From Candidatus Dadabacteria bacterium (GTDB lineage Bacteria; Desulfobacterota_D; UBA1144; Nemesobacterales; Nemesobacteraceae): a stretch of 64,000 nucleotides of DNA. The notes beneath the pieces are model-generated. The model ran no database searches. It was not told the origin of the DNA and saw only the letters and a program-made list of their open reading frames with translations. Made by a program: the position numbers and the translations under genes. Location: NCBI GenBank assembly GCA_951812945.1, contig CATOTB010000001.1, forward strand, positions 488,198 through 552,197, read 5' to 3'. Shown here piece by piece: positions 6,456 through 24,100 of the stretch (positions are counted from its first letter, which is position 1; each line of letters starts with the position of its first letter).

Positions 6456-7471
6456 TCCTCCTCAGGTTCTTTGGTGTCTTTTAAGAAGTTGAGAAACTTG
6501 CTTACCATGTTGTAGGAACCGATATATATGGGGGCTCTCTGGTGAAGTTCCGTAGGCTGAATGTCAAGCGTTCTTTCCGTTCCGCTTGACGAGGCTCCTC
6601 CTGCCTGTTCCACGATGAAGGCCATCGGATTGCACTCGTAGAGAAGCCTGAGTTTTCCGTTCGGAGAATCTGTGGTCTTCGGATAAATGAATATTCCTCC
6701 CTTGAGGAGGTTTCTGTGAATATCGGCGACCATGGATCCGACGTACCTGAGCGAGAGATTGGAGCTGTTTTCTCCGTCCCTGCAGTAGTCGAGATACTCC
6801 TTTACCCTCTTGGGAAATTTGGAATAATTGTAGTAGTTAACCGAGAAGATATTGCCGTGGCTAGGAATCTTTATGTTTGGATGGGAGAGGCAGAATTCTC
6901 CTATTGACGGATCAAGCGTAAACCCGTTTACTCCGTGGCCGGTAGTGTATACGAGCATGGTTGAAGAACCGTATATTATGTATCCTGCGGCCGTCTGGGC
7001 CTTGCCCGGCTGCAGGAAATCCTCCATGAGGCAAGGGGAGAACATCTTCGAAGTTCTTCTGTATACGGAGAATATGGTCCCCACTGACACGTTTACGTCT
7101 ATATTGGAGGACCCGTCAAGAGGATCCATAGCTATGACGTATTTTGAGGTCTTCGATTTCTCGTCTGAAAAAGCTATGAAATCCTCGTTTTCCTCAGACG
7201 CCACTCCAGCGCATTCACCGCCATGTTCAAGTGCAGTCAGAAACCTTTCGTTCGCGTAGGAATCGAGCTTTCTTACCTCTTCTCCTTGGATGTTTACCTG
7301 GCCCGTTTTGCCCAGGATCTCAGCGACAAGACCGGCTTTGTTCACTTCCCTGTGAACTATTTTCGCCGCAAACCCTATGTCTCGAAGCAGCCTTGAGAGC
7401 TCCCCGGTGGAATAGGGAAATTCATACTGATTTCTTATAATAAATTCGTCAAGAGTAGTTATCGAAACCAT
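6452..7471 (-). CDS. fbp: class 1 fructose-1,6-bisphosphatase
   Basis: FBPase class I motifs ([17 protein letters not shown]). Confidence 0.88.
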
Positions 7472-9785: not shown

Positions 9786-10793
9786 CTAAGGCAAGCGAAG
9801 TTTTTCAAAGTAAAGGTCTAGCAGATTCGCGGCTCCGGTATAGGGATCCGTTTTCCCTTCCATCACTTTTTTCTCCACTTCGCCGAGCGTTTTTTTGACC
9901 GAAACGTTTTCGTAAAAACTGTCCTCAAGATTCTGGATCAGTACCTCGTGCAGGCGGTATTTCGCCTGCTTTCTTCTTTTTTCCGCAAAGTATCCGTTTT
10001 CTCTGCAGAGTTTTTCATACTCCGTGACGCATTGCCAGATTTCCTTTATTCCGTAGCCCGTGACGGATGAGCAGGCGTGAGCCTTGGGAATCCATCCGGA
10101 TTCTGGCGGTCTGTGAAATCTCAGCGCCTCTTCCATCTCCTGTTTCATAAGCTCCGCTTTTTTCTTGTTTCTTCCATCCGCTTTGGTTATCAATACGGCG
10201 TCAGCGCGCTCGATTATTCCCTTTTTTATTCCCTGGATGTCATCTCCCGCCCCGGTAATCATGAGCAGCATGAAGAAATCGACCATTGAGTGGCAGGTAA
10301 TTTCGGACTGTCCAACTCCCACCGTCTCTATAAAGATCGTGTCGAATCCCGCCGCCTCGCAGAGAATCACGGCATCGCTTGTCTTTTTTGCAACTCCTCC
10401 CAGGGAACCGGCTGACGGGGAAGGCCTTATGTAGACGTTTTCGTGCCGGGAAAGTTCCTGCATTCTGAGCTTGTCGCCGAGAACGCTTCCTCCGGTTTCG
10501 CTGCTTGTGGGGTCAATTGCGAGCACCGCTATCTTTTTTCCGCGCTCGTGCGCCAGATAGAGACCCAGAGATTCTATGAAGCTGCTCTTTCCGACTCCCG
10601 GTATGCCCGTAATTCCTACTCTTATGGATTTTCCGGACCGTGGCAGACACCACGTGATTATTTCCCGCGCAAGCTTCTTGTGCTCAGGCAGGGTGCTCTC
10701 GGCGAGGGTTATCGCCCTGCTCAGAACGGGTATTTCTCCCTTGGCTATGCCCCGGCGGTAGGTTTCCGCTTCTGTCTTTCTGCGCGACGTCAT
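9786..10793 (-). CDS. meaB: methylmalonyl-CoA mutase-associated GTPase MeaB/ArgK
   Basis: P-loop GIPGVGKSS and MeaB family pattern; start overlaps the mutB stop. Confidence 0.88.
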
Positions 10794-12922
10794 GTTCGGG
10801 TTTGTATAAGTGACAGGAGTATAGCTTCAGCCGCTTCGGACAGCACGGTTCCCGGACCGAATATCTGCGAGACTCCGGCTTTCCGGAGGTAATCGTAATC
10901 GCGTTTGGGGATAACCCCTCCCGCCACTACCATTATATCGTTGGCTCCCATCTCATCGAGTTTTTTTATCAGTTCGGGGATAAGGGTCTTGTGACCGGCA
11001 GCCAGGCTTGATATTCCGACTACGTGGACATCGTTTTCAACCGCCTGTCTTGCCGCCTCTTCCGGGGTCTGAAAGAGCGGGCCTATGTCAACGTCGAAAC
11101 CAAGGTCGGCAAAGCCAGTCGCTATTATCTTCGCCCCGCGGTCATGGCCGTCCTGCCCCATTTTCGCGACCAGTATTCTGGGTCTTCTTCCTTCCAGTGT
11201 GGCGAAGCGGTCGGCAAGTTCTCTTGCCTTGGCGAATCCGGCATCCTTCGAGATTTCCGAGGAGTATACTCCCGAAATCGTGCGCCACCCGGGCTGATAT
11301 CTTCCCCATACCTCTTCACACGCGTCTGATATTTCTCCTAGGGTCGCGTTTTCCCTCGCGGCCTCAACGGCTAGGGAAAGAAGGTTCCCTTCCCCTGTCC
11401 TGGCACATTCGGTAATTTTCTCAAGAGCGCGCTCCACTGCCCTGGAATCCCTTTCTTTCCTGAGTTTTTTTAGTCTTCTGATCTGATTCTGCCTCACCTT
11501 GCGGTTATCCACCTCAAGTATATCGAATTCTTCCTCTGCATCCGAACTGTATCTGTTGACTCCTACTATCACGTCTTTTCCCGAGTCTATTCTGGCCTGT
11601 TTTCGGGCTGCGGCCTCCTCGATTCTCATTTTCGGTAGGCCGGTTTCTATAGCTTTAGACATTCCGCCCAGTTCTTCTATTTCCATTATAAGTTCCCACG
11701 CTTTTCTCGCCAGATTGTGGGTCAGATATTCAACGTAGTAGGACCCCGCCCAGGGATCAATCAACCTGCATATATCGGTTTCTTTCTGAAGATAGAGCTG
11801 GGTGTTTCTAGCTATCCTGGCGGAGAAATCGGTGGGAAGGGCGATGGCTTCGTCAAGAGCGTTTGTGTGAAGCGACTGGGTGCCGCCGAGCACAGCGCTT
11901 AGGGCTTCAACGCAGGTTCTTGTCACGTTGTTAAACGGATCCTGTTCCGTAAGACTCCATCCCGAAGTCTGGCAGTGGGTTCTGAGCATAAGCGACCCTG
12001 GGTTCTTGGGCTTAAACTGATTGACGATTTTGGCCCATAACATTCTCGCAGCTCTCATCTTTGCGATTTCCATGAAGTGATCCATGCCTATTCCCCAGAA
12101 AAAAGAAATTCTGGGGGCAAAATCGTCGATACTGAGTCCCGCCTCAACGCCCGCTCTCAAATACTCAAGGCCGTCTGCGAGCGTGTAGGCAAGCTCTATG
12201 TCCGACGTGGCACCTGCTTCCTCCATGTGGTAACCGCTTACGCTTATCGAATTGAACTTCGGCATGTTCTTCGACGTGTATTCGAAAATGTCCGAGACTA
12301 TCTTCATCGAGAATTCGGGCGGATAGATGTAGGTGTTTCTTACCATGAACTCCTTGAGTATGTCGTTTTGGATCGTGCCGCTCAGTTTTTCCGGGCTCAC
12401 TCCCTGTCGCTCCGCGACGACTATATAGAAAGCCATGATCGGCAGAACCGCGCCGTTCATGGTCATGGAAACCGAGATTTCGTCAAGAGGTATTCGATCG
12501 AGAAGAATTTCCATGTCCAGTATCGAGTCTATTGCCACACCCGCCTTCCCGACATCTCCCGAAACTCTGGGGTGATCCGAGTCATACCCCCTGTGAGTCG
12601 GAAGATCGAAAGCTATGGAGAGTCCCTTCTGGCCAGCGGCCAGGTTTCTCCTGTAAAACGCGTTTGATTCCTCCGCGGTGGAGAACCCCGCATACTGTCT
12701 GATGGTCCAAGGTCTTGTGGTATACATGGTCGGGTAGGGCCCGCGAAGATAGGGTGGAATTCCAGGGACAAATCCCAGATGCTCGGAGTCGCTGAGATCG
12801 TCGTGGACATAAACCGTTTTTATGTCTATTTCTTCCGGTGATTCCCGTATTATATCTCCGGTTGCCTTGGCATTACCGCTCGAACCGGCTCCAAGCTTTA
12901 TTTTCGAAAAATCGGGTCTCAT
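10790..12922 (-). CDS. mutB: methylmalonyl-CoA mutase large (alpha) subunit with C-terminal B12-binding domain
   Basis: 710 aa; MCM catalytic TIM-barrel motifs plus a C-terminal cobalamin-binding Rossmann segment (DxHDRG). Confidence 0.9.
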
Positions 12923-14892
12923 GGCTCGACCTCGTCTGAGAGAAGAGGTTCCTGGTATCTCTCGAGCATGTCGAGGACATCGGAACCCGCGTGGATGAAG
13001 TCATCCGCCCCCGCCTGCGCAAGCTTCTCCCGCGTGCTTTGTCCGCCACCTGAAACAACAGCTTTTATTTCCGCTTTTCCGCTTTTGATTCTTCTTATCG
13101 CTTCTTTCCCTAGCTGCTCGTAATCTTTGTCGGAACCGCAGATCACTACCGCGAGCGGACTCTCGCGCAGAGCCGCTGCAACTCCTTCATCAACTCCCGG
13201 ATTTTCGGCTCCGTCAATTACTGCGAACCCTCCGCATCCGAAAAAATTCATCGAAAAAACCGATCTTGCGACTGTCTGCGGAGAATCGCTCAGATGAAGC
13301 AGGAAAACTTTCGGTGCCTCGCTCGTTTTTTCCGCGTGTTTTTCGCTTAGAAGCCTTATTTTCTCAAAACCTTGAGCTGCTCTTGATTCCGCAAGGGGCG
13401 CTACTTTAGGGGCCGAGCCATTCATCTTTTCTTCTATGGGTGGGGCTTTCCGGATGTGCGCCGACATCTTTTCCAGCAGGTTGGGAAACTCGTTTGTTCC
13501 GATGAGCGTTTTTTTCCTGCGTGAAATGTCGAGGAGTGTTTTTTTTCTGCTGTCCTCAATCGTCTTCTGTATGAACCCGCTTTTCAGGCACTCAAAGTAG
13601 CCGCCTTTTTTTTCTATTTTCTGGAACAGTTCTAGGGATTTCTGCGAAATGGACTGCGTCAGTTTTTCTATGTGATAGGAACCGCCCCCGGGATCGATCA
13701 CCGCGTCGAGATGGGACTCATTTTTTATCAGAAGCTGGATGTTTCTCGCCACTCTTCTTGAAAGTTCATCGGGTTCGCTGTAGTGGGCGTCAAAGGGTTC
13801 CACGGTCAGAGAACTTGCCCCCCCGATTACCGACGCCATGGCTTCAAGCGCCGTCCGCAGTATGTTTACGTGTGAGTCGTAAATGGTTTTGTTGAAGGTC
13901 GTGGTGCGGCAATGAATTCTCATTTTTGTAGATTCGAGGGAATCGGGTGAGAACTGTTGCGCGATGTTTGCCCAGAGCGCTCTTGCGGCGCGGAGCTTGG
14001 CGATTTCCGCAAAGTAGCTTGAGCCGGTGGAAAAGGAAAAAGCGAGGTGGCGGCAGGCACGGTCTGCGTCAACGCCCTTTTGGCGGAGCATGACCAGATA
14101 TTCGGCCGCGGCTGCAATCGTGAAAGCGAGTTCCTGGGTTATCGTTGCCCCTGAACTTTTAAACGTTGAACTTTTTACCGAAAACGCCGCGTAACCGGGC
14201 GCGGCATCGGATAGATATCCAATGGTTTCCGCGATCTTCTCCAGATTCTTTTCAAGCGCCGTTACTGAAGACCCGCCCGCAAGCAGCTGGGAGAGGGGGT
14301 CGAAAAACACGGCGCCGTCAAGTTCTCGGGTATCGATTCCTTTCTTGCTGCAGGCGGAAATGAAAAGCACGGAGACTTTTTCCGGATCTGCTCTTAAGGC
14401 AAAATTGAGGCTGGTCTGCAATGGGTCTATATCTTTTACAAGAGCTTCGATGACCTCGGGTTTCATTTCTGTTTCCGGGATGAAGGTGATTGAATCCACT
14501 CCACCCTTGATTGCCGCAAGCGCGTCGCGCGTCGCATCTTTCGGAGCGATAAGCTTTATCTCTTCTGTAAGAATCCAGCTGTTGTTTTTTTTGCCGGTTC
14601 CCCGGACAAACGGAAATTCTCCCGGAAGAGGATTTTTCCCCGTGAAAAAATCTCTTGCTTCTTCTTCGGTGTAGAAGGGTTCAACCGCTATACCGTCTTC
14701 AGTGGTCCATATAAGATCTTCGTAGGACCCCGGCTTTGCGATCTTTTTTTCAACTTCTTTTTTCCAGCTTTCCTTCGATATGCTTGGAAAATCATCGAAA
14801 AGAAGAGTCTGTGCGTGTTTTTTTTCCGTCTTACTCATAAAATCTGCGTTTTTCCTCTCAATCTCTTGGGTGAATAAGTATATAAGTCCCAT
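12919..14892 (-). CDS. mutA: methylmalonyl-CoA mutase small (beta) subunit
   Basis: 657 aa MCM-like protein directly upstream of mutB with a 4-nt overlap. Confidence 0.8.
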
Positions 14893-15210: not shown

Positions 15211-15352
15211 TTGTTTTGAAGGGACATTTTGAAGGGACAAGAAAAATAAGCGATATCAGGGAGGTATGAAGGGACAAGGGACAATGAAGGGACAACCGCT
15301 GTTTTTAGGTAATTTAAGCAGTTACTTAATTTTTTTGGGAAATTGTCCCTTT
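15211..15352 (+). repeat. array of GAAGGGACA(A) motifs (4 full + 1 partial direct, 1 inverted)
   Basis: direct copies at 15218, 15231, 15268, 15287 with a partial at 15277 and an inverted TTGTCCCTT at 15343. Confidence 0.7.
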
Positions 15353-16684: not shown

Positions 16685-16806
16685 GAACAAGACGTAGAAA
16701 AAGCGCTGTTGGGACGAAATGATCTCAAAGAATTTTCAGCATTAATCGGCTTTTTTAGTTAACATAACACCCCAGATTTTGTGAATTTCGTGGCAATTTC
16801 ATGTTA

Positions 16807-16814
16807 TAAATTTG
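16807..16814. repeat. 8-bp direct repeat TAAATTTG (putative target-site duplication, left)
   Basis: identical 8-mer immediately outside both terminal IRs. Confidence 0.5.
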
Positions 16815-16845
16815 GGGAATTATAAAGGAAAGTTGACAAAACTTC
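16815..16845. repeat. terminal inverted repeat (left) of the IS1595-family element
   Basis: 31/31 match to the reverse complement of 21812-21842. Confidence 0.7.
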
Positions 16846-16854
16846 GTAACTCAC

Positions 16855-17025
16855 TCATTTGACTTCAACAATTTTTGGGTTGCCTTTGCTGTCTTTTTGG
16901 AGGGAAAATCGGCGTTCTAAATCCTCTTTTTTCGGCTTCTTCGGACGCTCATGCTTTACCGGTCCCATGCCGAGCAATAGCTTGGCAGCCTCGTCTACCT
17001 GGTCCCATTCATCTTTCTTGCTCAT
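16855..17025 (-). CDS. small hydrophilic Lys-rich protein, 56 aa (below the ORF-track cutoff)
   Basis: hand translation MSKKDEWDQVDEAAKLLLGMGPVKHERPKKPKKEDLERRFSLQKDSKGNPKIVEVK; third in a co-oriented run of tiny ORFs. Confidence 0.35.
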   Translation of the reverse strand: MSKKDEWDQVDEAAKLLLGMGPVKHERPKKPKKEDLERRFSLQKDSKGNPKIVEVK

Positions 17026-17034
17026 TTGGTCTAC

Positions 17035-17283
17035 CTAAACTACATAAGACATTATGATTCCTGCGATAATCCCGCCCGTAAGGAGAATTAGGGGCCATGC
17101 TATTCCTATCGCAAGCACTGCGAGCATGTACAAAACGAAGCCCACGCCGAAGACTACCATGAGGGTTTGCTCAAAGCCTTTGTTTTCACCCCGCTGTTGG
17201 CGTTCCCAGTCCCTTCGCTTGGCGTTCCGCTTCAGGAGTTTCTGTCGCTTCTCATGCTCTTCCCATGTAAGTTTGCTTGCCAT
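17035..17283 (-). CDS. 82-aa small membrane protein (basic N-terminus, C-terminal TM hairpin)
   Basis: ORF with a Lys/Arg-rich N-terminal 40 aa followed by two hydrophobic helices. Confidence 0.45.
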   Translation of the reverse strand: MASKLTWEEHEKRQKLLKRNAKRRDWERQQRGENKGFEQTLMVVFGVGFVLYMLAVLAIGIAWPLILLTGGIIAGIIMSYVV

Positions 17284-17286
17284 CGT

Positions 17287-17505
17287 CTAAATTTCGACTA
17301 TTTCTTCCAAGCCCTCTCTGTGTGCCTTAATCTGGTCTTCAAACTCTTGGTTTGTAACTCTGTCCAGTATTTGCCCAATCTGAATCTGTCCTTTTGCCAG
17401 TCCTTTAATGCCAGACTCAATTCTGTCAAAGCGTTTGGTGAACTTCTCATCCAGTTCGTTTATTGCATCTAATACTTTTTTGTTATCGTCGTGAATGATT
17501 GACAT
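17287..17505 (-). CDS. 72-aa small acidic coiled-coil protein
   Basis: ORF; TATAAT box about 35 nt upstream on the minus strand; spaced 4 nt from the next ORF. Confidence 0.45.
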   Translation of the reverse strand: MSIIHDDNKKVLDAINELDEKFTKRFDRIESGIKGLAKGQIQIGQILDRVTNQEFEDQIKAHREGLEEIVEI

Positions 17506-17666
17506 GGTATTCTTGTCTCTGACACAGTTCTCTTATCTGTAATTATAGCCGGCAAAATTGGAACTGTCTGAGATTTGTTCCCCCTATTTTGGTTTTTCAG
17601 ATACGGAAACCATACCTGATTTTGCCGGCAAATTCAAGGTGTTAGAACCATCATTCTACTTCTACC

Positions 17667-18152
17667 TTACCGACTGCAAGTCCCACCTAAAAGGCTATCG
17701 TAGAACGAACTGCGACGGCAGGAAAGTTCAGGGTAGTCATCTGCACTGAAACCCTCGAAAGCTACCGTCCTTCCAGAAGCTAGCGACCAAGTGGCAAAGT
17801 AATTTCTAGACGGAAAGTCCATTGAGAGTCCGACGTATTCGTCTCCATACTGGTCTCGGTAGCCTGCTAGCATCCATGTTCCACTGGTTGTCCTGTCGTC
17901 AAAAAAATCCGTCAAGTAGGCGGCAACTGTACCGTCTTCGCAGAAAGCAAGGGCTTCATATACATCTTCGTCGTCACTACAGCTCCATATACCACTTCCC
18001 TGGATGAGAATCGCTGTGAGTTGAGCAATATCAGCGAGAGTCTCTTCACTCTCTCCTCCAGTTATTTCAGAAAATCCATCTGGAAGGTTATCTCCTCCCC
18101 CGCAACTGGTAACAAACACTAATACCAAGAAAAGAGACAAAATCGTCCTCAT
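17667..18152 (-). CDS. acidic Cys-containing lipoprotein, hypothetical
   Basis: lipoprotein signal LVFVTSC at the N-terminus. Confidence 0.6.
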   Translation of the reverse strand: MRTILSLFLVLVFVTSCGGGDNLPDGFSEITGGESEETLADIAQLTAILIQGSGIWSCSDDEDVYEALAFCEDGTVAAYLTDFFDDRTTSGTWMLAGYRDQYGDEYVGLSMDFPSRNYFATWSLASGRTVAFEGFSADDYPELSCRRSSFYDSLLGGTCSR

Positions 18153-18305
18153 AACATCCTCCTAAGTTTGGATTTGACCTCGGCAAAAAAGGGTGCCGGG
18201 CCTTGCTTACAACCAAAGAGACTTTGGACGTTCTGCTTATTTCCCAGACGGGTATTGTATTCACAGAGACCCGACAGGGCGGGTTCTCTTCAGTTGTAAG
18301 CAATT

Positions 18306-18334
18306 TTGACTATATCACAGAAGGGCGGTATAAT
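18306..18334 (+). promoter_or_regulatory. near-consensus sigma70 promoter TTGACT-N17-TATAAT driving the S1 protease gene
   Basis: hexamers and 17-nt spacer read directly. Confidence 0.5.
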
Positions 18335-18402
18335 CTATGAAAGTTTTAATCTTGTGAAACACCCCCTGCCGAGTACATTCTCCAAATTTGGCAAGTAAAA
18401 AA

Positions 18403-19212
18403 ATGAAAAGACATCTAATTATCGCAATTTTGGCAGTAATTCTTGTGGGAATTTATGCAGTGTTGCTACACGGAGAGACAAAGACACAAGCACGTGAAAT
18501 CCCAACCTCAAATATTCTGAACAGGATTCTCCCAATAAGAGTTGAGGTTAAAGAAGAATCTACTTTTAGAATTAACGAGGGAACAGTTTTCACAATAGAG
18601 GTGGATGGAAGACAATACTTGATAACTGCGAAGCATGTAACCAACCATCAAGCGGTGGAAGTGATAGAGATTTGGAGAAATGGTGGATGGACAGCAGTAA
18701 AGGTAAAAACCGTAGGAGTAGGGAAAGGAAATGAGGACATTATTGTATTAGCCGCAGATGAGAGACTAACTACCACCTTTGAAATAGAAATAGGGAGTGG
18801 CGGGATAGTATTAGGTCAAAATGTAAAATTCTTGGGATTCCCTCTCGATATTGAAGTATATATGACCCAAGCTAAGGAATGGAGAGTGCCTGTCGTAAAA
18901 GGCGGTATCCTTACCACAATTGAATCTGAGAAAGGCTCGTCCTGGTTGCTGGTAGACGGGCATGGCAACAAAGGATTTAGCGGAGGACCTGTAATATTCA
19001 AGCCACGTGAAGAAAACACTAAAACATGGAGGATTGCTGGAGTAATAAGCAGGTTTGAACCAGAAATCTTGTCTGTGATAGATAGCACAGGGAGAAAGAT
19101 AGAAGGCTTAGGGGTTGTAGGAAACTCCGGCATTATGGTGGCAACAGGAATTGAAGCAGCTTTGAAGCTAATTAAAGCAAACCCCATAGGATATCTCGTT
19201 AAAGAAAAGTGA
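18403..19212 (+). CDS. membrane-anchored trypsin-like (S1/chymotrypsin-fold) serine peptidase
   Basis: N-terminal TM anchor; catalytic His context TAKHV and Ser motif GFSGGPV; the track ORF begins at an upstream TTG (18388) and ATG 18403 is more likely. Confidence 0.7.
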   Translation: MKRHLIIAILAVILVGIYAVLLHGETKTQAREIPTSNILNRILPIRVEVKEESTFRINEGTVFTIEVDGRQYLITAKHVTNHQAVEVIEIWRNGGWTAVKVKTVGVGKGNEDIIVLAADERLTTTFEIEIGSGGIVLGQNVKFLGFPLDIEVYMTQAKEWRVPVVKGGILTTIESEKGSSWLLVDGHGNKGFSGGPVIFKPREENTKTWRIAGVISRFEPEILSVIDSTGRKIEGLGVVGNSGIMVATGIEAALKLIKANPIGYLVKEK

Positions 19213-19250
19213 ACGAAAGCCTAACTTACTAATATGACTAAACAATCTAC

Positions 19251-19258
19251 CCCCCCCC
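19251..19258 (+). repeat. homopolymeric C tract (C8 by the coordinate grid) in the 5' region of the methyltransferase gene
   Basis: read directly; lies between an upstream ATG (19235) and the conserved MTase N-terminal region. Confidence 0.6.
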
Positions 19259-19310
19259 TAAATCTAACTGGAAAGACAAGACAGTTTTTACGGGAGACAA
19301 TCTCCCCATA

Positions 19311-20480
19311 ATGCGCAGGATGAATTCCGACTGCGTAGACCTGATTTACTTAGACCCCCCTTTCAACAGCAAAACAAACTATGCTGCACCTATTGGTAGT
19401 CATGCGGCCGGTGCCGAGTTTAAGGATACTTGGACTCTCTATGACATAGATATTGTCTGGCTTGATTTACTTGAAGCCAAGCATCCAGCACTCAATCGAG
19501 TTATTCACGCTACTTTGACCAAGAGTGATAAATCTTATCTGATTTACATGGCGATTAGGTTGCTGGAAATGAGGCGGATACTGAAACCGGCCGGAGGCAT
19601 TTATCTTCACTGTGACCCAACAATGAGTCACTATTTGAAGCTGGTAATGGATGCTATATTCGGAAGAGAGAATTTTAGAAATGAAATTATTTGGGCTTAC
19701 ACGGGGCCAGGGTCTCCCAATATGAGGCAGTTTAACCGCAAGCACGATGTGATCTTCTGGTACTCAAACGGTGAAGACTGGACATTTAATGGGGATGCTG
19801 TTCGAGTATTGCATAAAAAACCTATTGGGGCTGGAGGCACATCTACAAAATGGCTGAAAGAGAAAGAAGATTTGGCGGAAAAATACAAAGGCGGGAAGAT
19901 TCCCGAGACATGGTGGACGAGGTTTTCTCCTGTCGGAAGGATTAAGGGAGAACGCACTGGTTATCCCACACAGAAACCGAGAAAGTTGTTAAAGCGAATA
20001 ATTGAAGCTAGTAGTCCAAGAGGGGGCATTGTATTTGACCCATTCTGTGGTTGTGCTACGACCTGCATAGCCGCAGAGGAATTAAACCGGCAATGGATAG
20101 GAATTGATATCTCGCCCAAAGCGGCGGAACTTGTACAAACCAGAATACTGAATGAACTAGGTTTTGCTGGACGTGAACATCAGATAATTCACCGCCAGGA
20201 CATTCCACAGAGAACAGATTTAGGAGAGATTCCAAAGTACAACTGTAAGGAGAACAAGAACAGATTGTATGGAGAGCAAGGTGGGCATTGCAACGGATGC
20301 AGAGAACACTTCCAAATGCGTCATTTAGAAGTGGACCACATCATTGCTCGCTCACAGGGTGGCACAGACCACATTGAGAATTTGCAAATGCTCTGTGGAA
20401 ACTGCAATCAGATTAAAGGCAATCGTGGACACGAGTACCTGTTGGCAAGAATGGAAGGGAGAAAAGTACCCTACGCATGA
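19311..20480 (+). CDS. beta-class DNA methyltransferase (DPPF motif IV preceding FDPFCG motif I) fused to a C-terminal HNH endonuclease domain
   Basis: DLIYLDPPF, FDPFCGCATT, then HLEVDHIIARSQGGTDHIENLQMLCGNCN; the conserved N-terminal region extends upstream of ATG 19311 and is frame-linked to ATG 19235 only if the C tract changes length. Confidence 0.85.
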   Translation: MRRMNSDCVDLIYLDPPFNSKTNYAAPIGSHAAGAEFKDTWTLYDIDIVWLDLLEAKHPALNRVIHATLTKSDKSYLIYMAIRLLEMRRILKPAGGIYLHCDPTMSHYLKLVMDAIFGRENFRNEIIWAYTGPGSPNMRQFNRKHDVIFWYSNGEDWTFNGDAVRVLHKKPIGAGGTSTKWLKEKEDLAEKYKGGKIPETWWTRFSPVGRIKGERTGYPTQKPRKLLKRIIEASSPRGGIVFDPFCGCATTCIAAEELNRQWIGIDISPKAAELVQTRILNELGFAGREHQIIHRQDIPQRTDLGEIPKYNCKENKNRLYGEQGGHCNGCREHFQMRHLEVDHIIARSQGGTDHIENLQMLCGNCNQIKGNRGHEYLLARMEGRKVPYA

Positions 20481-20492
20481 CCAAACTACGAA

Positions 20493-20741
20493 TCAGTAAA
20501 AAAACTTTGCAGTTAAAATTCCAGAAATTACACCGATAGCTATAGCTGGCCATTTATCAAGAAAATAAGCTTTTAGACTGGGATATGCAGATGCCCTTTT
20601 TTCTAACCACCAAATTATAATCCAAACTATGCCAACGATACCAAGAACTTCCCGTGCCTCGATACTTGAAAAAACTTTTGAAAGGAGATACGCCGCTGCG
20701 AAAGAAACTAGGAACTGCCTGAATGTAGGGAGATGATTCAT
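20493..20741 (-). CDS. 82-aa small membrane protein, hypothetical
   Basis: ORF with 2-3 hydrophobic helices. Confidence 0.35.
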   Translation of the reverse strand: MNHLPTFRQFLVSFAAAYLLSKVFSSIEAREVLGIVGIVWIIIWWLEKRASAYPSLKAYFLDKWPAIAIGVISGILTAKFFY

Positions 20742-20764
20742 TTTCTGTTCACAAAAGCGGAGGT

Positions 20765-21697
20765 CTAAGAAGTCAGTTTTTCAAAGGTAATGGTCTTGCC
20801 CACCATAGCACCGAACAGGGCGTTCAGTCTATCTTCTGTATCAACCTTGCAACTTCCTTCGCTCAAACGAAAAGCGAACTCGTTGATATAGGCACGCATG
20901 TGCTTCTTACTCCAGTTGTGGTAAACGCCGTTGTATCCACGCTTCATGACCGCCCATACGCTTTCAATCCCGTTGGTAGAAGCCATGCCATTTACGAATT
21001 CTTTCGCTGAATGATTGACTGTTCCGTGTTCAAAATCCTTCCCGAGTAATCCGCTATAGCCTTTATGTTCATCCGTAAACACGATGGAACCCTTAACGAC
21101 ATTTTCGCTTATCTCTCTTTCGAGGGTTTCCGCGTCCCGTCTTTCAATAGGAATTGCCTTAGTCTTGCCGCCACGTTCTCTCATGCCGAGTACGCAGGTC
21201 TTTCCAACAGGTCCACGTCCGGCGTGAAGCTTCTTGGATTCGTGTTTGTTTTTTTCGAGACCTCCCAGAAAAGTTTCGTCTATTTCCACAACTCCCTTCA
21301 AGGCTTCCATATCGCTTCCGCAGGCAAGACGCAGACGGTGAAGCATGTACCAAGCAGTGGGTTGGGAAACAGCCAGTTCCTTGCTTAGCTGGAGACTGCT
21401 TATGCCCTTTCTGGCTGTCATTAGCAGATAAGCGGCGAATATCCACTTGCGAAGGTCAATCTTTCCATACTCAAGCGGAGTTCCGGTGCGAGCGGTGAAA
21501 TACTTGCGACAATTCCCGCACCAGTAACGTCCAGGGTGTTTGAATTGAGGGGTGATCTTCTCGGTGCTACCGCACCTTGTGCAGTGCCTCTTGTTACCCC
21601 ATCTCTGATTCTCAAGATACTTGATAGCATCTTCCTCAGTAGGATATTTCTGCATCAACTCGAACAAGCTGATTATCTTTGCATGTTTCTTTTTCAT
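20765..21697 (-). CDS. IS1595-family (ISXO2-like) transposase with N-terminal zinc ribbon
   Basis: CxxC...CxxC zinc ribbon (HCTRCGST...WCGNCRKYF) followed by a DDE ISXO2-like domain; 310 aa. Confidence 0.85.
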   Translation of the reverse strand: MKKKHAKIISLFELMQKYPTEEDAIKYLENQRWGNKRHCTRCGSTEKITPQFKHPGRYWCGNCRKYFTARTGTPLEYGKIDLRKWIFAAYLLMTARKGISSLQLSKELAVSQPTAWYMLHRLRLACGSDMEALKGVVEIDETFLGGLEKNKHESKKLHAGRGPVGKTCVLGMRERGGKTKAIPIERRDAETLEREISENVVKGSIVFTDEHKGYSGLLGKDFEHGTVNHSAKEFVNGMASTNGIESVWAVMKRGYNGVYHNWSKKHMRAYINEFAFRLSEGSCKVDTEDRLNALFGAMVGKTITFEKLTS

Positions 21698-21811
21698 GAT
21701 GGTATAAGATACCTGAAAAAGAAGGGTTTGTCAACTCTTGTTCCTGTTTTTTAGGAGAGTTCTCAGTGACTTAGATATTTCTTGATTCTAGCTTCGGAAA
21801 TGGGTTCAATA

Positions 21812-21842
21812 GAAGTTTTGTCAACTTTCCTTTATAATTCCC
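21812..21842. repeat. terminal inverted repeat (right) of the IS1595-family element
   Basis: exact reverse complement of 16815-16845. Confidence 0.7.
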
Positions 21843-21850
21843 TAAATTTG
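21843..21850. repeat. 8-bp direct repeat TAAATTTG (putative target-site duplication, right)
   Basis: identical to 16807-16814. Confidence 0.5.
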
Positions 21851-21868
21851 GCAAGATCATTTTACCCG

Positions 21869-22054
21869 TTATACTTGGCGATCCGAACTTCGCTCGTACC
21901 GCGCTGCCCCAACCATCTCATCTGCTTCAGAGTCAAGGACCTTGTTCAATACTTCCTCTACCGTATCGGTGACTATGGAGCTTAGGTGACCCCTAAGCTC
22001 CTCGTGGTTAATCTGAATTACCTTTTTGGGGCTCTTCGCTGTATAATCTCTCAT
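21869..22054 (-). pseudogene. N-terminal 61-codon fragment of an IS256-family transposase
   Basis: LNKVLDSEADEMVGAARYERSSDRQ matches the conserved IS256/mutator-type N-terminal region; reading frame decays after the stop. Confidence 0.55.
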
Positions 22055-22077: not shown

Positions 22078-22109
22078 TAAATTTAGGTAATTACCCCTAT
22101 AACTAGCCA
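22078..22109. repeat. 32-bp perfect inverted repeat, copy A (23 bp upstream of the IS256-like transposase fragment)
   Basis: TAAATTTAGGTAATTACCCCTATAACTAGCCA is the exact reverse complement of 22505-22536. Confidence 0.7.
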
Positions 22110-22444
22110 AAAGTAAAATGAGGGAGCGGTTGCTGGAGGACGGCACTGTCCTTGGTGTTTTTTGTATAATATTCGAGTGTTTTTGGATCTAATAGGGGGG
22201 GTGTATAGACTTAAGTTTACAAGTCCTCCAAACCCTGTATCGCTTCCTCGAACCCGCGGTGTAGTGCTTTAAATTCCAAGAGCCATCTTACCCCGGCGAC
22301 ATTTTTGCTTCTCGTGGAAGCAGGTAATTCATCGGACTGAATTCATGTTGGGGAGGTTTGAGAGTTCCATTTACTCGAGTGGAGCAGGGGAGGCTTATTA
22401 GGACCAACCGTTCTGTATCATCCTGAAATAACTTAGTATTTACC

Positions 22445-22474
22445 TTGACAAACAGTTAGACAGAAATATAGAAT
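22445..22474 (+). promoter_or_regulatory. putative promoter TTGACA-N18-TAGAAT inside the IR-bounded 395-bp segment, facing the 22571 ORF
   Basis: hexamers read directly. Confidence 0.3.
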
Positions 22475-22504
22475 TACCGTTAAGTACTATTATGATGGAG
22501 CAAG

Positions 22505-22536
22505 TGGCTAGTTATAGGGGTAATTACCTAAATTTA
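22505..22536. repeat. 32-bp perfect inverted repeat, copy B
   Basis: exact reverse complement of 22078-22109. Confidence 0.7.
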
Positions 22537-22570: not shown

Positions 22571-24004
22571 ATGCCGCCTCTTTTTTTAATTTGCGAAAAA
22601 TTTAAAGCGTTATCGATGTTGGGGGATAGAAACATAAGACTGTCGTTTGCTGCGCGATACTTACTAGCTACCTTTTTTTTGACTTCTTTACCGTATATTT
22701 CCATCGGTCAATCTACAAATGAGCTTGTGGGAAACTTGGGCTCCGCTCTTACGGTCGGACAGATAATAAATCAGGCGTCCGATGCGGCAGATGATTTGGT
22801 TACGGAGGGGTTTGATCGTTTTGATAGTTCGGTCTTGCTGGCAGCGACTGAAGCGAGAGCCACTGTAAATCAAGTGTCACTTCAACTCGCCGACTCAATC
22901 AATCTTTCGGTAGAGCAATTGGACTCGCAACAACGCAGAGTTATCTCAGATCTAGAGTCTTTGACGACGACAATTACCGAGGCAATAGCAAAAGACGTTG
23001 CGGACATAGTTACGCCTATTCAGGGTGACATCCGGTTACTATTATCTCGAAATCCTGGCTTCATACGTATTTCAGGAGGATTTGCCACACGACAAGATAA
23101 GTATCTTGAGTTCCAACTCAAAGGCACCGCTCTGTCTCAAGCGGACATTGATAACTTCCAAGTTAATTCTGTAGAGTCCAAACCGAATGTTGTTTCTAGC
23201 GATGACACGCACGTTAAGATACGCATCCCCCTTGATGAGCCACCAATCGCTGATCTTTTAGGCTCTGGCGACAGCTTCGATGAACTGATCGAGATTCCGA
23301 TAAGCTTCGTTTTGAAGGAATGTGGTTTGCTCGGTATGTTTTGTAATTATGATCGGAAATTTTCGCTACTTGGCTATGTATTTCCGGAAAACGTTGGAAC
23401 TGTAAAAGCTGTATTTGACGGATGGATCTCGACGGAAGAGCGGATGCAACGTAAGCTAGAGTTTATAAGCGATAAGGTGAGAACGAGGGTGCGTCTTCTT
23501 CCTCCTGAAGTTCGAGCTGGGGATCGGCGGGACATATGGTCCATGACTCCTCACGATGGGTGGAGAATTGATACCCGGTCGGCCGATTTCGATTTCGTTA
23601 AATTATATGGAGGATGCAGCAATTCGCGATGTTCCGCATCATGGGAAGAAAAAACAGAACACATACTCCGAGTTAAAGCAAGGACCTCGTCTGATAGGAG
23701 GGTCGGCGTAACCTGTAAGACATCGACAACCATTAAGTTTTCGCAATGGCGCACCAATACCAATCGCCATACCCATGAGACGGATGCCGTTGAGATTGTA
23801 GTCGATGGAACTACGCATCTTCCTTTGGATAAAACCATAGGTCTAACTAACGCGCGCCTTTCTCATCTAGTGATCCAATCGCCGTTGTTTCGACGAGGAG
23901 AGGAGAGGATACTCCGAGATGGCCAAAAAATTGGTGGACTGCGAGTAGAATACGACACTGCAACTCAAACCGTCTTTCTTCACAGCTCTATGAACATGAA
24001 CTAA
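22571..24004 (+). CDS. hypothetical 477-aa protein with N-terminal membrane anchor
   Basis: long ORF with no family I recognise; hydrophobic segment near the N-terminus. Confidence 0.45.
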   Translation: MPPLFLICEKFKALSMLGDRNIRLSFAARYLLATFFLTSLPYISIGQSTNELVGNLGSALTVGQIINQASDAADDLVTEGFDRFDSSVLLAATEARATVNQVSLQLADSINLSVEQLDSQQRRVISDLESLTTTITEAIAKDVADIVTPIQGDIRLLLSRNPGFIRISGGFATRQDKYLEFQLKGTALSQADIDNFQVNSVESKPNVVSSDDTHVKIRIPLDEPPIADLLGSGDSFDELIEIPISFVLKECGLLGMFCNYDRKFSLLGYVFPENVGTVKAVFDGWISTEERMQRKLEFISDKVRTRVRLLPPEVRAGDRRDIWSMTPHDGWRIDTRSADFDFVKLYGGCSNSRCSASWEEKTEHILRVKARTSSDRRVGVTCKTSTTIKFSQWRTNTNRHTHETDAVEIVVDGTTHLPLDKTIGLTNARLSHLVIQSPLFRRGEERILRDGQKIGGLRVEYDTATQTVFLHSSMNMN

Positions 24005-24100
24005 TGCGGTTTTATCGAACAGATCCTCTATATCTGTTGTCACAGAAGGGGTCCGGTCGGGGAATTGTTATTTGTTTTTTTCGACTTTAATATTAAGAAG

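Follow-up and report, generated by a model that had tools for sequence, protein, structure and literature searches.

The question raised by this locus is what, precisely, moves. In a 64-kb stretch of the contig CATOTB010000001.1 of a Candidatus Dadabacteria bacterium (hereafter the window, that is, the whole stretch of DNA that was analysed), positions 16815-21842 form a 5,028-bp segment that is bounded by inverted repeats and encompasses eight open reading frames (ORFs), one of which encodes a transposase. The mobile unit could be a short insertion sequence (IS) lying among unrelated genes, or it could be the complete segment, as proposed in the first-pass annotation that was made from the sequence alone. 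We conclude that the segment is, very probably, a single, intact IS1595-family transporter IS (tIS), in which the transposase, two identical ends and a set of other genes make up a single transposable unit.

The ends of this unit are sharply defined. The transposase-distal terminal inverted repeat, GGGAATTATAAAGGAAAGTTGACAAAACTTC, at 16815-16845 (+), is matched with 31/31 identity by its exact reverse complement, the transposase-proximal repeat, at 21812-21842 (-), and the 8-bp sequence TAAATTTG directly abuts both of them, at 16807-16814 on the left and, in a matching copy, at 21843-21850 on the right, so that the perfect 31-bp ends and their flanks lie exactly where the annotation had placed them. 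When up to three mismatches are allowed, the 31-bp repeat has only these two matches in the window, and none was obtained in 100 shuffles. The annotation had also reported no second copy of the repeat by the 3' end of the transposase gene; we likewise found no copy inside the element, the best ungapped internal match being 18/31 at 21722, which corresponds to a subterminal TTGACA motif (21725-21738) that adjoins the transposase-side end. No second copy of the element is present in the window, and no second transposase was found in the element. The G+C content of the element is 0.42-0.49, compared to 0.50-0.55 for the genes at 10-14.5 kb. The passenger content listed in the annotation, namely, a methyltransferase (MTase)-HNH fusion, an S1 protease, a lipoprotein and several tiny ORFs, agrees with the Pfam domains and sequence motifs that we identified. 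A direct repeat in the window, 18377-18395 versus 21837-21855, was considered as a relic end with its target and rejected: the sequence upstream of it shows no similarity to the terminal repeat, and we treat the match as a chance occurrence in a promoter region.

The only transposase gene (20765-21697, -) is, as the annotation had recognized, of the ISXO2/IS1595 type and reads inward from the right end; 114 nt separate its start codon from the inner edge of the right repeat, in accord with the earlier estimate of about 115 bp. The gene encodes a full-length, 310-aa IS1595-family DDE transposase that is 95% identical to the protein P0001 and shows significant matches to the Pfam domains DDE_Tnp_IS1595 (PF12762; 4.5e-41) and Zn_ribbon_IS1595 (PF12760; 1.8e-09) as well as to the NCBIfam model transpos_IS1595 (NF033547; 2.9e-56, 190.7 bits versus the cutoff of 75). 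In an alignment of 17 homologues, with identity down to 38%, the four zinc-ribbon cysteines and the residues D140, D209, E245 and K252 are invariant; the latter four are the putative catalytic residues, and the protein looks functional judging by its sequence. The element thus combines the features that define IS1595 membership: a zinc ribbon with an ISXO2-like DDE domain, a D/D/E triad with a lysine seven residues on, and terminal repeats accompanied by an 8-bp duplication. A promoter-like site of the transposase gene, TTGACA-17-TATCTT (21706-21734, -), has 10/12 matches, and its -35 hexamer is the subterminal TTGACA of the repeat. A megablast search of plasmids for the element gave no match, and tblastn against plasmids returned only matches below 45% identity that are annotated merely as 'IS1595 family transposase'; the repeat pattern has no match in viral contigs.

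The target site shows how the segment arrived. We scanned metagenome contigs for empty sites using a query that consisted of the left flank together with the first base common to the occupied and empty alleles, and found the uninterrupted target in six LXNJ01 contigs (L044, L046, L047, L048, L053 and L060), each with one copy of TAAATTTG. The core of these empty targets reads ...TTTCATGTTATAAATTTGGCAAGATCATTTT... (in the longer form, ...TTCGTGGCAATTTCATGTTATAAATTTGGCAAGATCATTTTTCCCGTTATA), and they align without gaps to window positions 16741-16814 joined to 21851-21873; removal of the 5 kb from the occupied site would give the junction ...GTGGCAATTTCATGTTATAAATTTGGCAAGATCATTTTACCCGTTATACTTGGCG.... 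Because TAAATTTG is present once in the uninterrupted target, these 8 bp existed before the insertion and were duplicated by it, so that TAAATTTG is a true target-site duplication, as claimed in the annotation. Furthermore, both ends of the element fall within one contiguous target, as expected if the whole 5 kb was inserted in a single event, and together with the clean 8-bp duplication this is in line with the earlier view that all 5,028 bp constitute the mobile unit. The search for an empty site and for extra copies, which the annotation had proposed as a check, produced the empty sequence in six contigs, but neither an empty allele of the same locus nor a second 5,028-bp copy.

The annotation overlooked that the target coincides with the end of a short genomic repeat, in whose terminal ~30 bp the element is inserted. 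This dispersed repeat is represented by at least six copies in the LXNJ01 contigs, all of which stop at ...CCGTTATA and diverge in their downstream flanks; in these copies, it is preceded by the apparent 3' terminus of a repeated ORF together with a terminator-like run. The contig L048 is also 94% identical to window positions 23586-24028, which indicates that the LXNJ01 assembly contains a related organism. We considered a fragment of an IS256-like gene (21869-22054) as the disrupted target and rejected it because the left flank does not continue this ORF and the true target ends at 21873. Identical 8-bp duplications were observed in unrelated flanks, namely, CAAATTTA (in the transposase orientation) for the window element and the relative at L001, and CAAAGAAG for those at L002 and L003. 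Such sharing of duplications among independent elements suggests a real target-sequence preference.

The same ends bound many other elements. Proteins that are 76-95% identical to the window transposase are encoded on metagenome contigs, and the same end sequence delimits their elements, including those at L001-L005, whereas the GGGAATTATA-type tip also bounds remoter relatives; the possibility, mentioned in the annotation, that the repeat is an ordinary chromosomal one is thereby refuted. Altogether, GGGAATTATA... ends bound relatives of 1.4-7.7 kb, with differing cargo, in metagenomes and in metagenome-assembled genomes (MAGs), and most of these have 8-bp duplications of their own, which were detected in at least 14 relatives, including at least 10 elements in MAGs. 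Thus, CAAATTTA flanks a 6.2-kb element with a nested IS inside (L001), CAAAGAAG flanks elements of 6.3 kb (L002) and 2.9 kb (L003), and TAAAGTAA flanks a 7,660-bp relative (L066-L069); a 3.0-kb element at a different locus in the same sample as L003 (L004) has no duplication. A scan of one genome per species yielded 36 loci, and uncultured bacteria represented by MAGs account for nearly all of them; in this set, elements that combine a GGGAATTATA-type tip with an 8-bp duplication of their own are 1.4, 2.1-2.3, 3.3-4.3 and 5.8 kb long. In the MAG OZ251221.1, a 2,286-bp unit composed of the transposase and an MTase-HNH fusion is present in at least six copies, with identical 8-bp flanks read for four of them, alongside a 1,411-bp form that lacks MTase-HNH and is present in at least five copies (loci L006-L015 and L017 cover both forms). 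The shorter form does not qualify as a deletion derivative of the longer one: the only parts in common are the transposase (96%) and the ends. Given the multi-copy 2,286-bp unit and the 2.3-7.7-kb relatives with their own 8-bp duplications, cargo-bearing units of this family do transpose, as the annotation had assumed, and the existence of the 1,411-bp transposase-only copies indicates that, for some members, the transposase alone is enough.

Two other explanations of the 5-kb segment have to be weighed against insertion as one unit. AAATTT is palindromic, and the ends could accordingly be read as a 38-bp inverted repeat with one mismatch and no target duplication, an option that the annotation itself had offered; a repeat search does return 38-nt arms with 97% complementarity, but the uninterrupted targets contain a single TAAATTTG between identical flanks, and the duplications in the relatives, for example, CAAAGAAG and TAAAGTAA, are not palindromic, which refutes this alternative and leaves its probability practically nil. 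The second explanation is accretion, whereby a short IS gained cargo in place, or a one-ended event made use of a fortuitous distal repeat. The cargo slots do vary among the relatives, and the nested ISs in L001 and L005 indicate that elements are remodelled after insertion; however, the two ends of the window element match over all 31 bp and sit in a single contiguous target that is cleanly duplicated over 8 bp, an internal copy of the repeat is absent, and the distal and transposase ends share a lineage, given that the former comprises the lineage-specific s56 gene (see below) and flanking sequence with 78-84% identity to L003, L005 and L066. We consider accretion very unlikely.

Several observations weigh against the conclusion that the segment is an intact, mobile tIS. 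The elements at L004 (7552-10511) and L005 (9909-15689) have intact ends and yet lack a target duplication; the empty sites represent further copies of the target repeat, from a related metagenome, and not demonstrably the same locus; homologues of the MTase-HNH fusion with 66-68% identity occur also outside IS1595 ends (L063 and L064); and the exact transposase is recorded on one 937-kb contig only, with no second copy in the window, so that the mobility of this particular 5-kb unit is deduced from a single insertion. The state of L004 and L005 points to rearrangement after insertion. Besides a nested IS30-like gene (HTH_38 and rve domains), the L005 element harbours an inverted 53-bp copy of its left flank (9852-9904 versus 15256-15308).

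By analogy with other members of the IS1595 family, transposition of the tIS would require a single zinc-ribbon/DDE transposase that recognizes the two 31-bp ends and, via an 8-bp staggered cut, inserts the whole 5,028-bp segment. The TTGACA motif of the terminal repeat recurs subterminally at the transposase promoter. The MTase-HNH protein would protect the DNA that it methylates and damage the rest, and in this capacity might favour retention of the element as a defence or addiction module, with a possible benefit to the host.

The MTase-HNH gene (19311-20480, +) encodes a 389-aa protein that combines a beta-class DNA methyltransferase (N6_N4_Mtase, 1.2e-47) and, at the C-terminus, an HNH nuclease (HNH, 1.4e-13), and the motifs of both domains, DPPF, FDPFCGCATT and CxxC...DH...N...CxxCN, are intact in the translation. 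Most likely, this is a single-chain restriction-modification-like enzyme, and with DPPF as motif IV, adenine is its probable methylation target. The same architecture is very common, being present in all of the 120 best matches, at 60-73% identity; among the chains in the Protein Data Bank (PDB), none spans both the MTase and HNH domains, and we found no paper in the literature that characterizes the fusion. The candidate rule that its homologues are always enclosed by IS1595 ends is ruled out by L063 and L064, where such ends are lacking; hence the fusion is not specific to these elements.

Homologues of the fusion are found within the tIS of L003-L006, L029, L031 and L066-L069. The combination of N6_N4_Mtase and HNH was detected in the window, L003/L004, L005, the L006 type and L066-L069, whereas L029 and L031 encode full-length homologues of the window protein that were recognized as such rather than by a domain scan. 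Other elements carry different enzymes of the same general kind: N6_Mtase-type and N6_N4_Mtase-type proteins are exemplified by L001 (N6_N4_Mtase with a weak Mrr_cat match), L024 (10906-13732; a 628-aa N6_Mtase with a Type I S subunit, Methylase_S) and L030 (10906-13008; a 700-aa N6_Mtase). Methyltransferases linked to nucleases are the dominant cargo among the family elements compared, the remainder including an SNase-like protein, a Cas2-like 84-aa protein and many proteins without an assigned function. The Cas2-like protein (PF09827, 1.1e-05), encoded at 11107-11361 (-) in L022 and L023, is the sole cargo of a 1,825-bp IS1595 element present at two loci in one MAG. The element at L029 holds the closest MTase-HNH homologue among those compared, and a tRNA gene (11877-11950; 43 bits) lies within this predicted 4-kb tIS of a Caldilineaceae MAG. 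In the close relatives, the transposases are 85-95% identical, whereas the MTases are just 31-42% identical, and the orientation of the gene and the type of the nuclease domain differ as well, which argues for repeated replacement rather than co-descent.

Comparison of the window element with those at L005 and L066, in the transposase orientation, reveals a series of conserved blocks: the transposase with the proximal end; a portion of the MTase gene; a central block of 267 bp (18094-18360; 82% identity to L066) that consists of the non-coding region 18153-18360 and the signal-peptide end of the lipoprotein gene; the non-coding block 17579-17665; an 82-aa membrane ORF; and a 56-aa ORF with the distal end. 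The backbone in the closest lineage accordingly comprises the transposase and the ends, usually an MTase-nuclease, a central region resembling a small RNA (sRNA), a small membrane protein and s56. The annotation overlooked this backbone: the 56-aa ORF, the MTase-nuclease and the structured RNA region recur, and not all of the passengers are arbitrary cargo. The variable slots of the window element are an 82-aa hydrophobic ORF, the serine protease and the short lipoprotein.

The 56-aa basic orphan protein that we denote s56 (16855-17025, -) is encoded by the last gene before the distal end and is kept in all close relatives: ORFs with 58-67% identity occupy the same position in L001-L004, and homologues are located likewise in L005 and L066-L070. 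The s56 family is small: a word search recovered eight clusters, and a profile search that covered 1.84 billion proteins recovered 59 representatives; no match to Pfam, NCBIfam or PADLOC was obtained. The AlphaFold (AF2) model consists of a helix, a basic linker and a beta-hairpin (mean confidence score, pLDDT, 75), and a fold search against the PDB gave no match with E below 2. In two database proteins, read-through has joined a fragment of an IS1595 transposase to an s56-like tail, and at L073, where clear element ends were not found, an s56 homologue directly follows a frameshifted IS1595 transposase. One s56 homologue is encoded without an IS1595 transposase nearby.

Next to s56 is an 82-aa ORF with a basic N-terminus and a hydrophobic C-terminal half (17035-17283, -), for which there are homologues at the same position in L005 (4.7e-24) and L001 (7.5e-07). 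The conserved non-coding block 17579-17665 (-), 74-88% identical to its positional counterparts in L001, L002, L005 and L066, lies just upstream of the promoter-like site CAGACA-17-TATAAT (17570-17542) that precedes the three small distal ORFs.

The central non-coding region 18153-18360, which is 82% identical to L066 and L005, contains a structured RNA (18187-18275, -) resembling sRNA-Xcc1. It matches the full Rfam model RF02221 (positions 1-87) with a score of 39.7 bits, below the gathering threshold of 53, and with E of 5e-06 for a search of 181 nt, or ~2e-03 at the scale of the window; a default search at the gathering threshold does not list it, and by score it falls outside the family. 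The L066 counterpart scores 34.4 bits. The RNA resembles sRNA-Xcc1 in the full-length model match with a AAUACAAUACCCG...GGG loop, a closing stem and a ACCCUUUU tail, and in lying immediately upstream of a small gene within a mobile element. It differs in that the downstream gene, the start codon of which is 35 nt beyond the terminal ACCCUUUU, encodes a lipoprotein and not symE, and in the conservation of a competing stem, an inverted repeat with 19-bp arms (18203-18221 / 18285-18303; 18203-18303, -) that overlaps and excludes the sRNA-like fold. The minus-strand fold of the 19-bp stem has z = -3.4. Both folds show some compensatory changes in L005 and L066. Among three distinct sequences, 98.5% of the cells in this stem are paired, with three compensatory pairs, compared to 91.7% and two compensatory pairs for the Xcc1-like fold, three sequences being too few to choose between the folds; one possibility is a leader in which the long stem and a terminator-like fold alternate. 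The sRNA-Xcc1 RNA was first found in an integron cassette, is located upstream of symE in Xanthomonas cassettes and occurs also in phage and island contexts, with which a location on a mobile element is compatible. Chen et al. (2011), to go by the title, reportedly found sRNA-Xcc1 on transposons and plasmids.

The recurrence of these parts suggests an explanation in which the MTase-HNH, s56 and the RNA are not passengers but working parts of a distinct multi-gene transposon: the HNH domain might perform second-strand cleavage, s56 might regulate transposition or bind the ends, and the methylase might mark the element or its target. The position of s56 at the same terminus in every close relative, the two read-through fusions and the L073 arrangement, and the presence of an MTase-nuclease in six of the seven distinct close elements are all in line with such a role. 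However, L002 lacks any MTase, and many relatives with 8-bp duplications have neither MTase nor s56, including the 1,411-bp transposase-only copies at several places in one MAG; the divergence of the MTases, with HNH in some elements and a weak Mrr_cat in another, looks like repeated replacement; and s56 is not confined to the neighbourhood of IS1595 transposases. We therefore assign only a small chance to this explanation. For the lineage that consists of the window element, L001-L005 and L066-L069, the corresponding proposition, that it is a distinct multi-gene IS1595-derived transposon in which the MTase-nuclease, s56 and the sRNA-like switch are functional parts of the life cycle, is likewise improbable, with a modest but appreciable chance of being correct. 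If it holds, these parts could function, respectively, in addiction or self-marking, end binding or transposition control, and RNA-level regulation, and a restriction-like enzyme would have been repeatedly recruited and swapped as a cassette.

The reading of the segment as an IS1595-family tIS places it in familiar company. The tIS are an accepted class within the IS1595 family (10.1101/2021.05.26.445724). Like other tIS, the window element carries its passengers between the ends of a single IS, with one transposase, two ends and no flanking IS pair, and like those of IS1595, it combines a zinc-ribbon and ISXO2-like DDE transposase with short terminal repeats and 8-bp duplications. Siguier, Gagnevin and Chandler are said to have described, in 2009, a passenger-carrying ISNwi1-type subgroup among the IS1595 tIS. 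We provisionally take this subgroup to be the best fit, the tip GGGAATTAT agreeing with its consensus, ggnnatTAT; the 5.0 kb of the window element, and still more the up to 7.7 kb of the relatives, presumably exceed the size range of the subgroup.

The cargo has precedents as well. Furuta, Abe and Kobayashi (2010) cite the IS1595 paper for restriction-modification (RM) and solitary M genes flanked by ISs and describe a unit in N. gonorrhoeae that is delimited by 26-bp inverted repeats, is accompanied by an 8-bp duplication and contains a Type IIG homologue together with an S subunit and a COG3677 transposase-like gene (PMC2853133). The window element is similar to these units in that RM-type genes reside in a short inverted-repeat unit with an 8-bp duplication and a COG3677 transposase-like gene; among its relatives, L024, with N6_Mtase and Methylase_S, carries the same type of gene pair as the Neisseria unit, which L030 also resembles. 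Unlike the Neisseria unit, the window element encodes a beta-class MTase with a C-terminal HNH instead of a gamma-class Type IIG enzyme, and carries additional, non-RM cargo. Similarly to Type IIG/IIC enzymes such as MmeI and BpuSI, the predicted protein unites the nuclease and the MTase in one chain, with the motifs of both intact, but whereas MmeI and BpuSI have an N-terminal PD-(D/E)XK domain and a gamma-class MTase, here a beta-class MTase precedes an HNH domain of ~60 aa. Composite transposons, miniature inverted-repeat transposable elements (MITEs) and mobile insertion cassettes (MICs) also place IS-type inverted repeats around non-transposase DNA; a composite transposon, however, needs two IS copies, whereas the window element has one transposase and two repeats, and MITEs and MICs lack the transposase that this element encodes. 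Because both tIS and RM-carrying units with 8-bp duplications have been described previously, the kind of element is already known, and the window adds a member to an existing class rather than a new kind of element. We found no description in the literature of the conserved non-transposase backbone, that is, s56, the sRNA-like region and the recurrent MTase-nuclease.

The current picture of transposons remains unchanged, although these features of the lineage merit note. The window element is a clean and apparently recent case of an IS that probably moves a conflict-type gene package as one unit, and the relatives show that IS1595-type ends repeatedly carry MTase-nuclease fusions and other genes of the restriction type, chiefly in bacteria that are uncultured and represented only by MAGs and metagenome contigs. 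The comparative set should be useful for the annotation of mobile defence genes, and the combination of one transposase, two 31-bp ends and an 8-bp duplication makes for a compact system in which to probe the effects of cargo genes and of cargo length on IS1595 transposition.

A trypsin-like serine protease (18388-19212, +, with the likely start ATG at 18403; Trypsin_2, 1.1e-06) contains the His (TAKHV), Asp (DIIVL) and Ser (GFSGGP) motifs and an N-terminal hydrophobic helix, and is predicted to be anchored in the membrane; no homologue was found in the relatives. Its weak PADLOC matches to the protease domains of LmuA, RT-Protease_XI and HamA hint at a conflict function. In front of the protease and MTase-HNH genes, the promoter-like site TTGACT-17-TATAAT (18306-18334, +; 11/12 matches) overlaps a block that is also conserved in L001; there, the gene that follows the block is a different one. 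The 161-aa predicted lipoprotein (17667-18152, -), which begins with MRTILSLFLVLVFVTSCGGG..., has a signal peptide and the lipobox LVFVTSC; this call, like the membrane anchor of the protease, comes from reading the sequence rather than from a dedicated predictor. A signal peptide and lipobox are common to the proteins in this slot in the window, L066 (259 aa, 6534-7313) and L005 (311 aa, 12799-13734), and the latter two contain the HExxHxxGxxH motif typical of metzincins and suggestive of metallopeptidases, which is absent from the shorter window protein. An 82-aa hydrophobic ORF directly downstream of the transposase (20493-20741, -) is unique to the window element among the relatives compared, and a 72-aa ORF (17287-17505, -) has only a weak PHROG match (0.003) and no homologue in the relatives.

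Immediately beyond the right end, the region at 21.8-22.6 kb is a pile-up of mobile-element debris. Between the target repeat and a MITE-like element lies a 61-aa N-terminal fragment of an IS256/Mutator-type transposase (21869-22054, -; Pfam, 6.6e-04). The MITE-like element itself (22086-22528, 443 bp) has inverted repeats of 24 bp, GGTAATTACCCCTATAACTAGCCA, which are perfect and show an IS1595-type tip, and is bordered on both sides by the palindrome TAAATTTA (span 22078-22536). A single copy of this 24-mer was found in L016 (7486-7509), where an IS1595 transposase lies 2.5 kb downstream of it.

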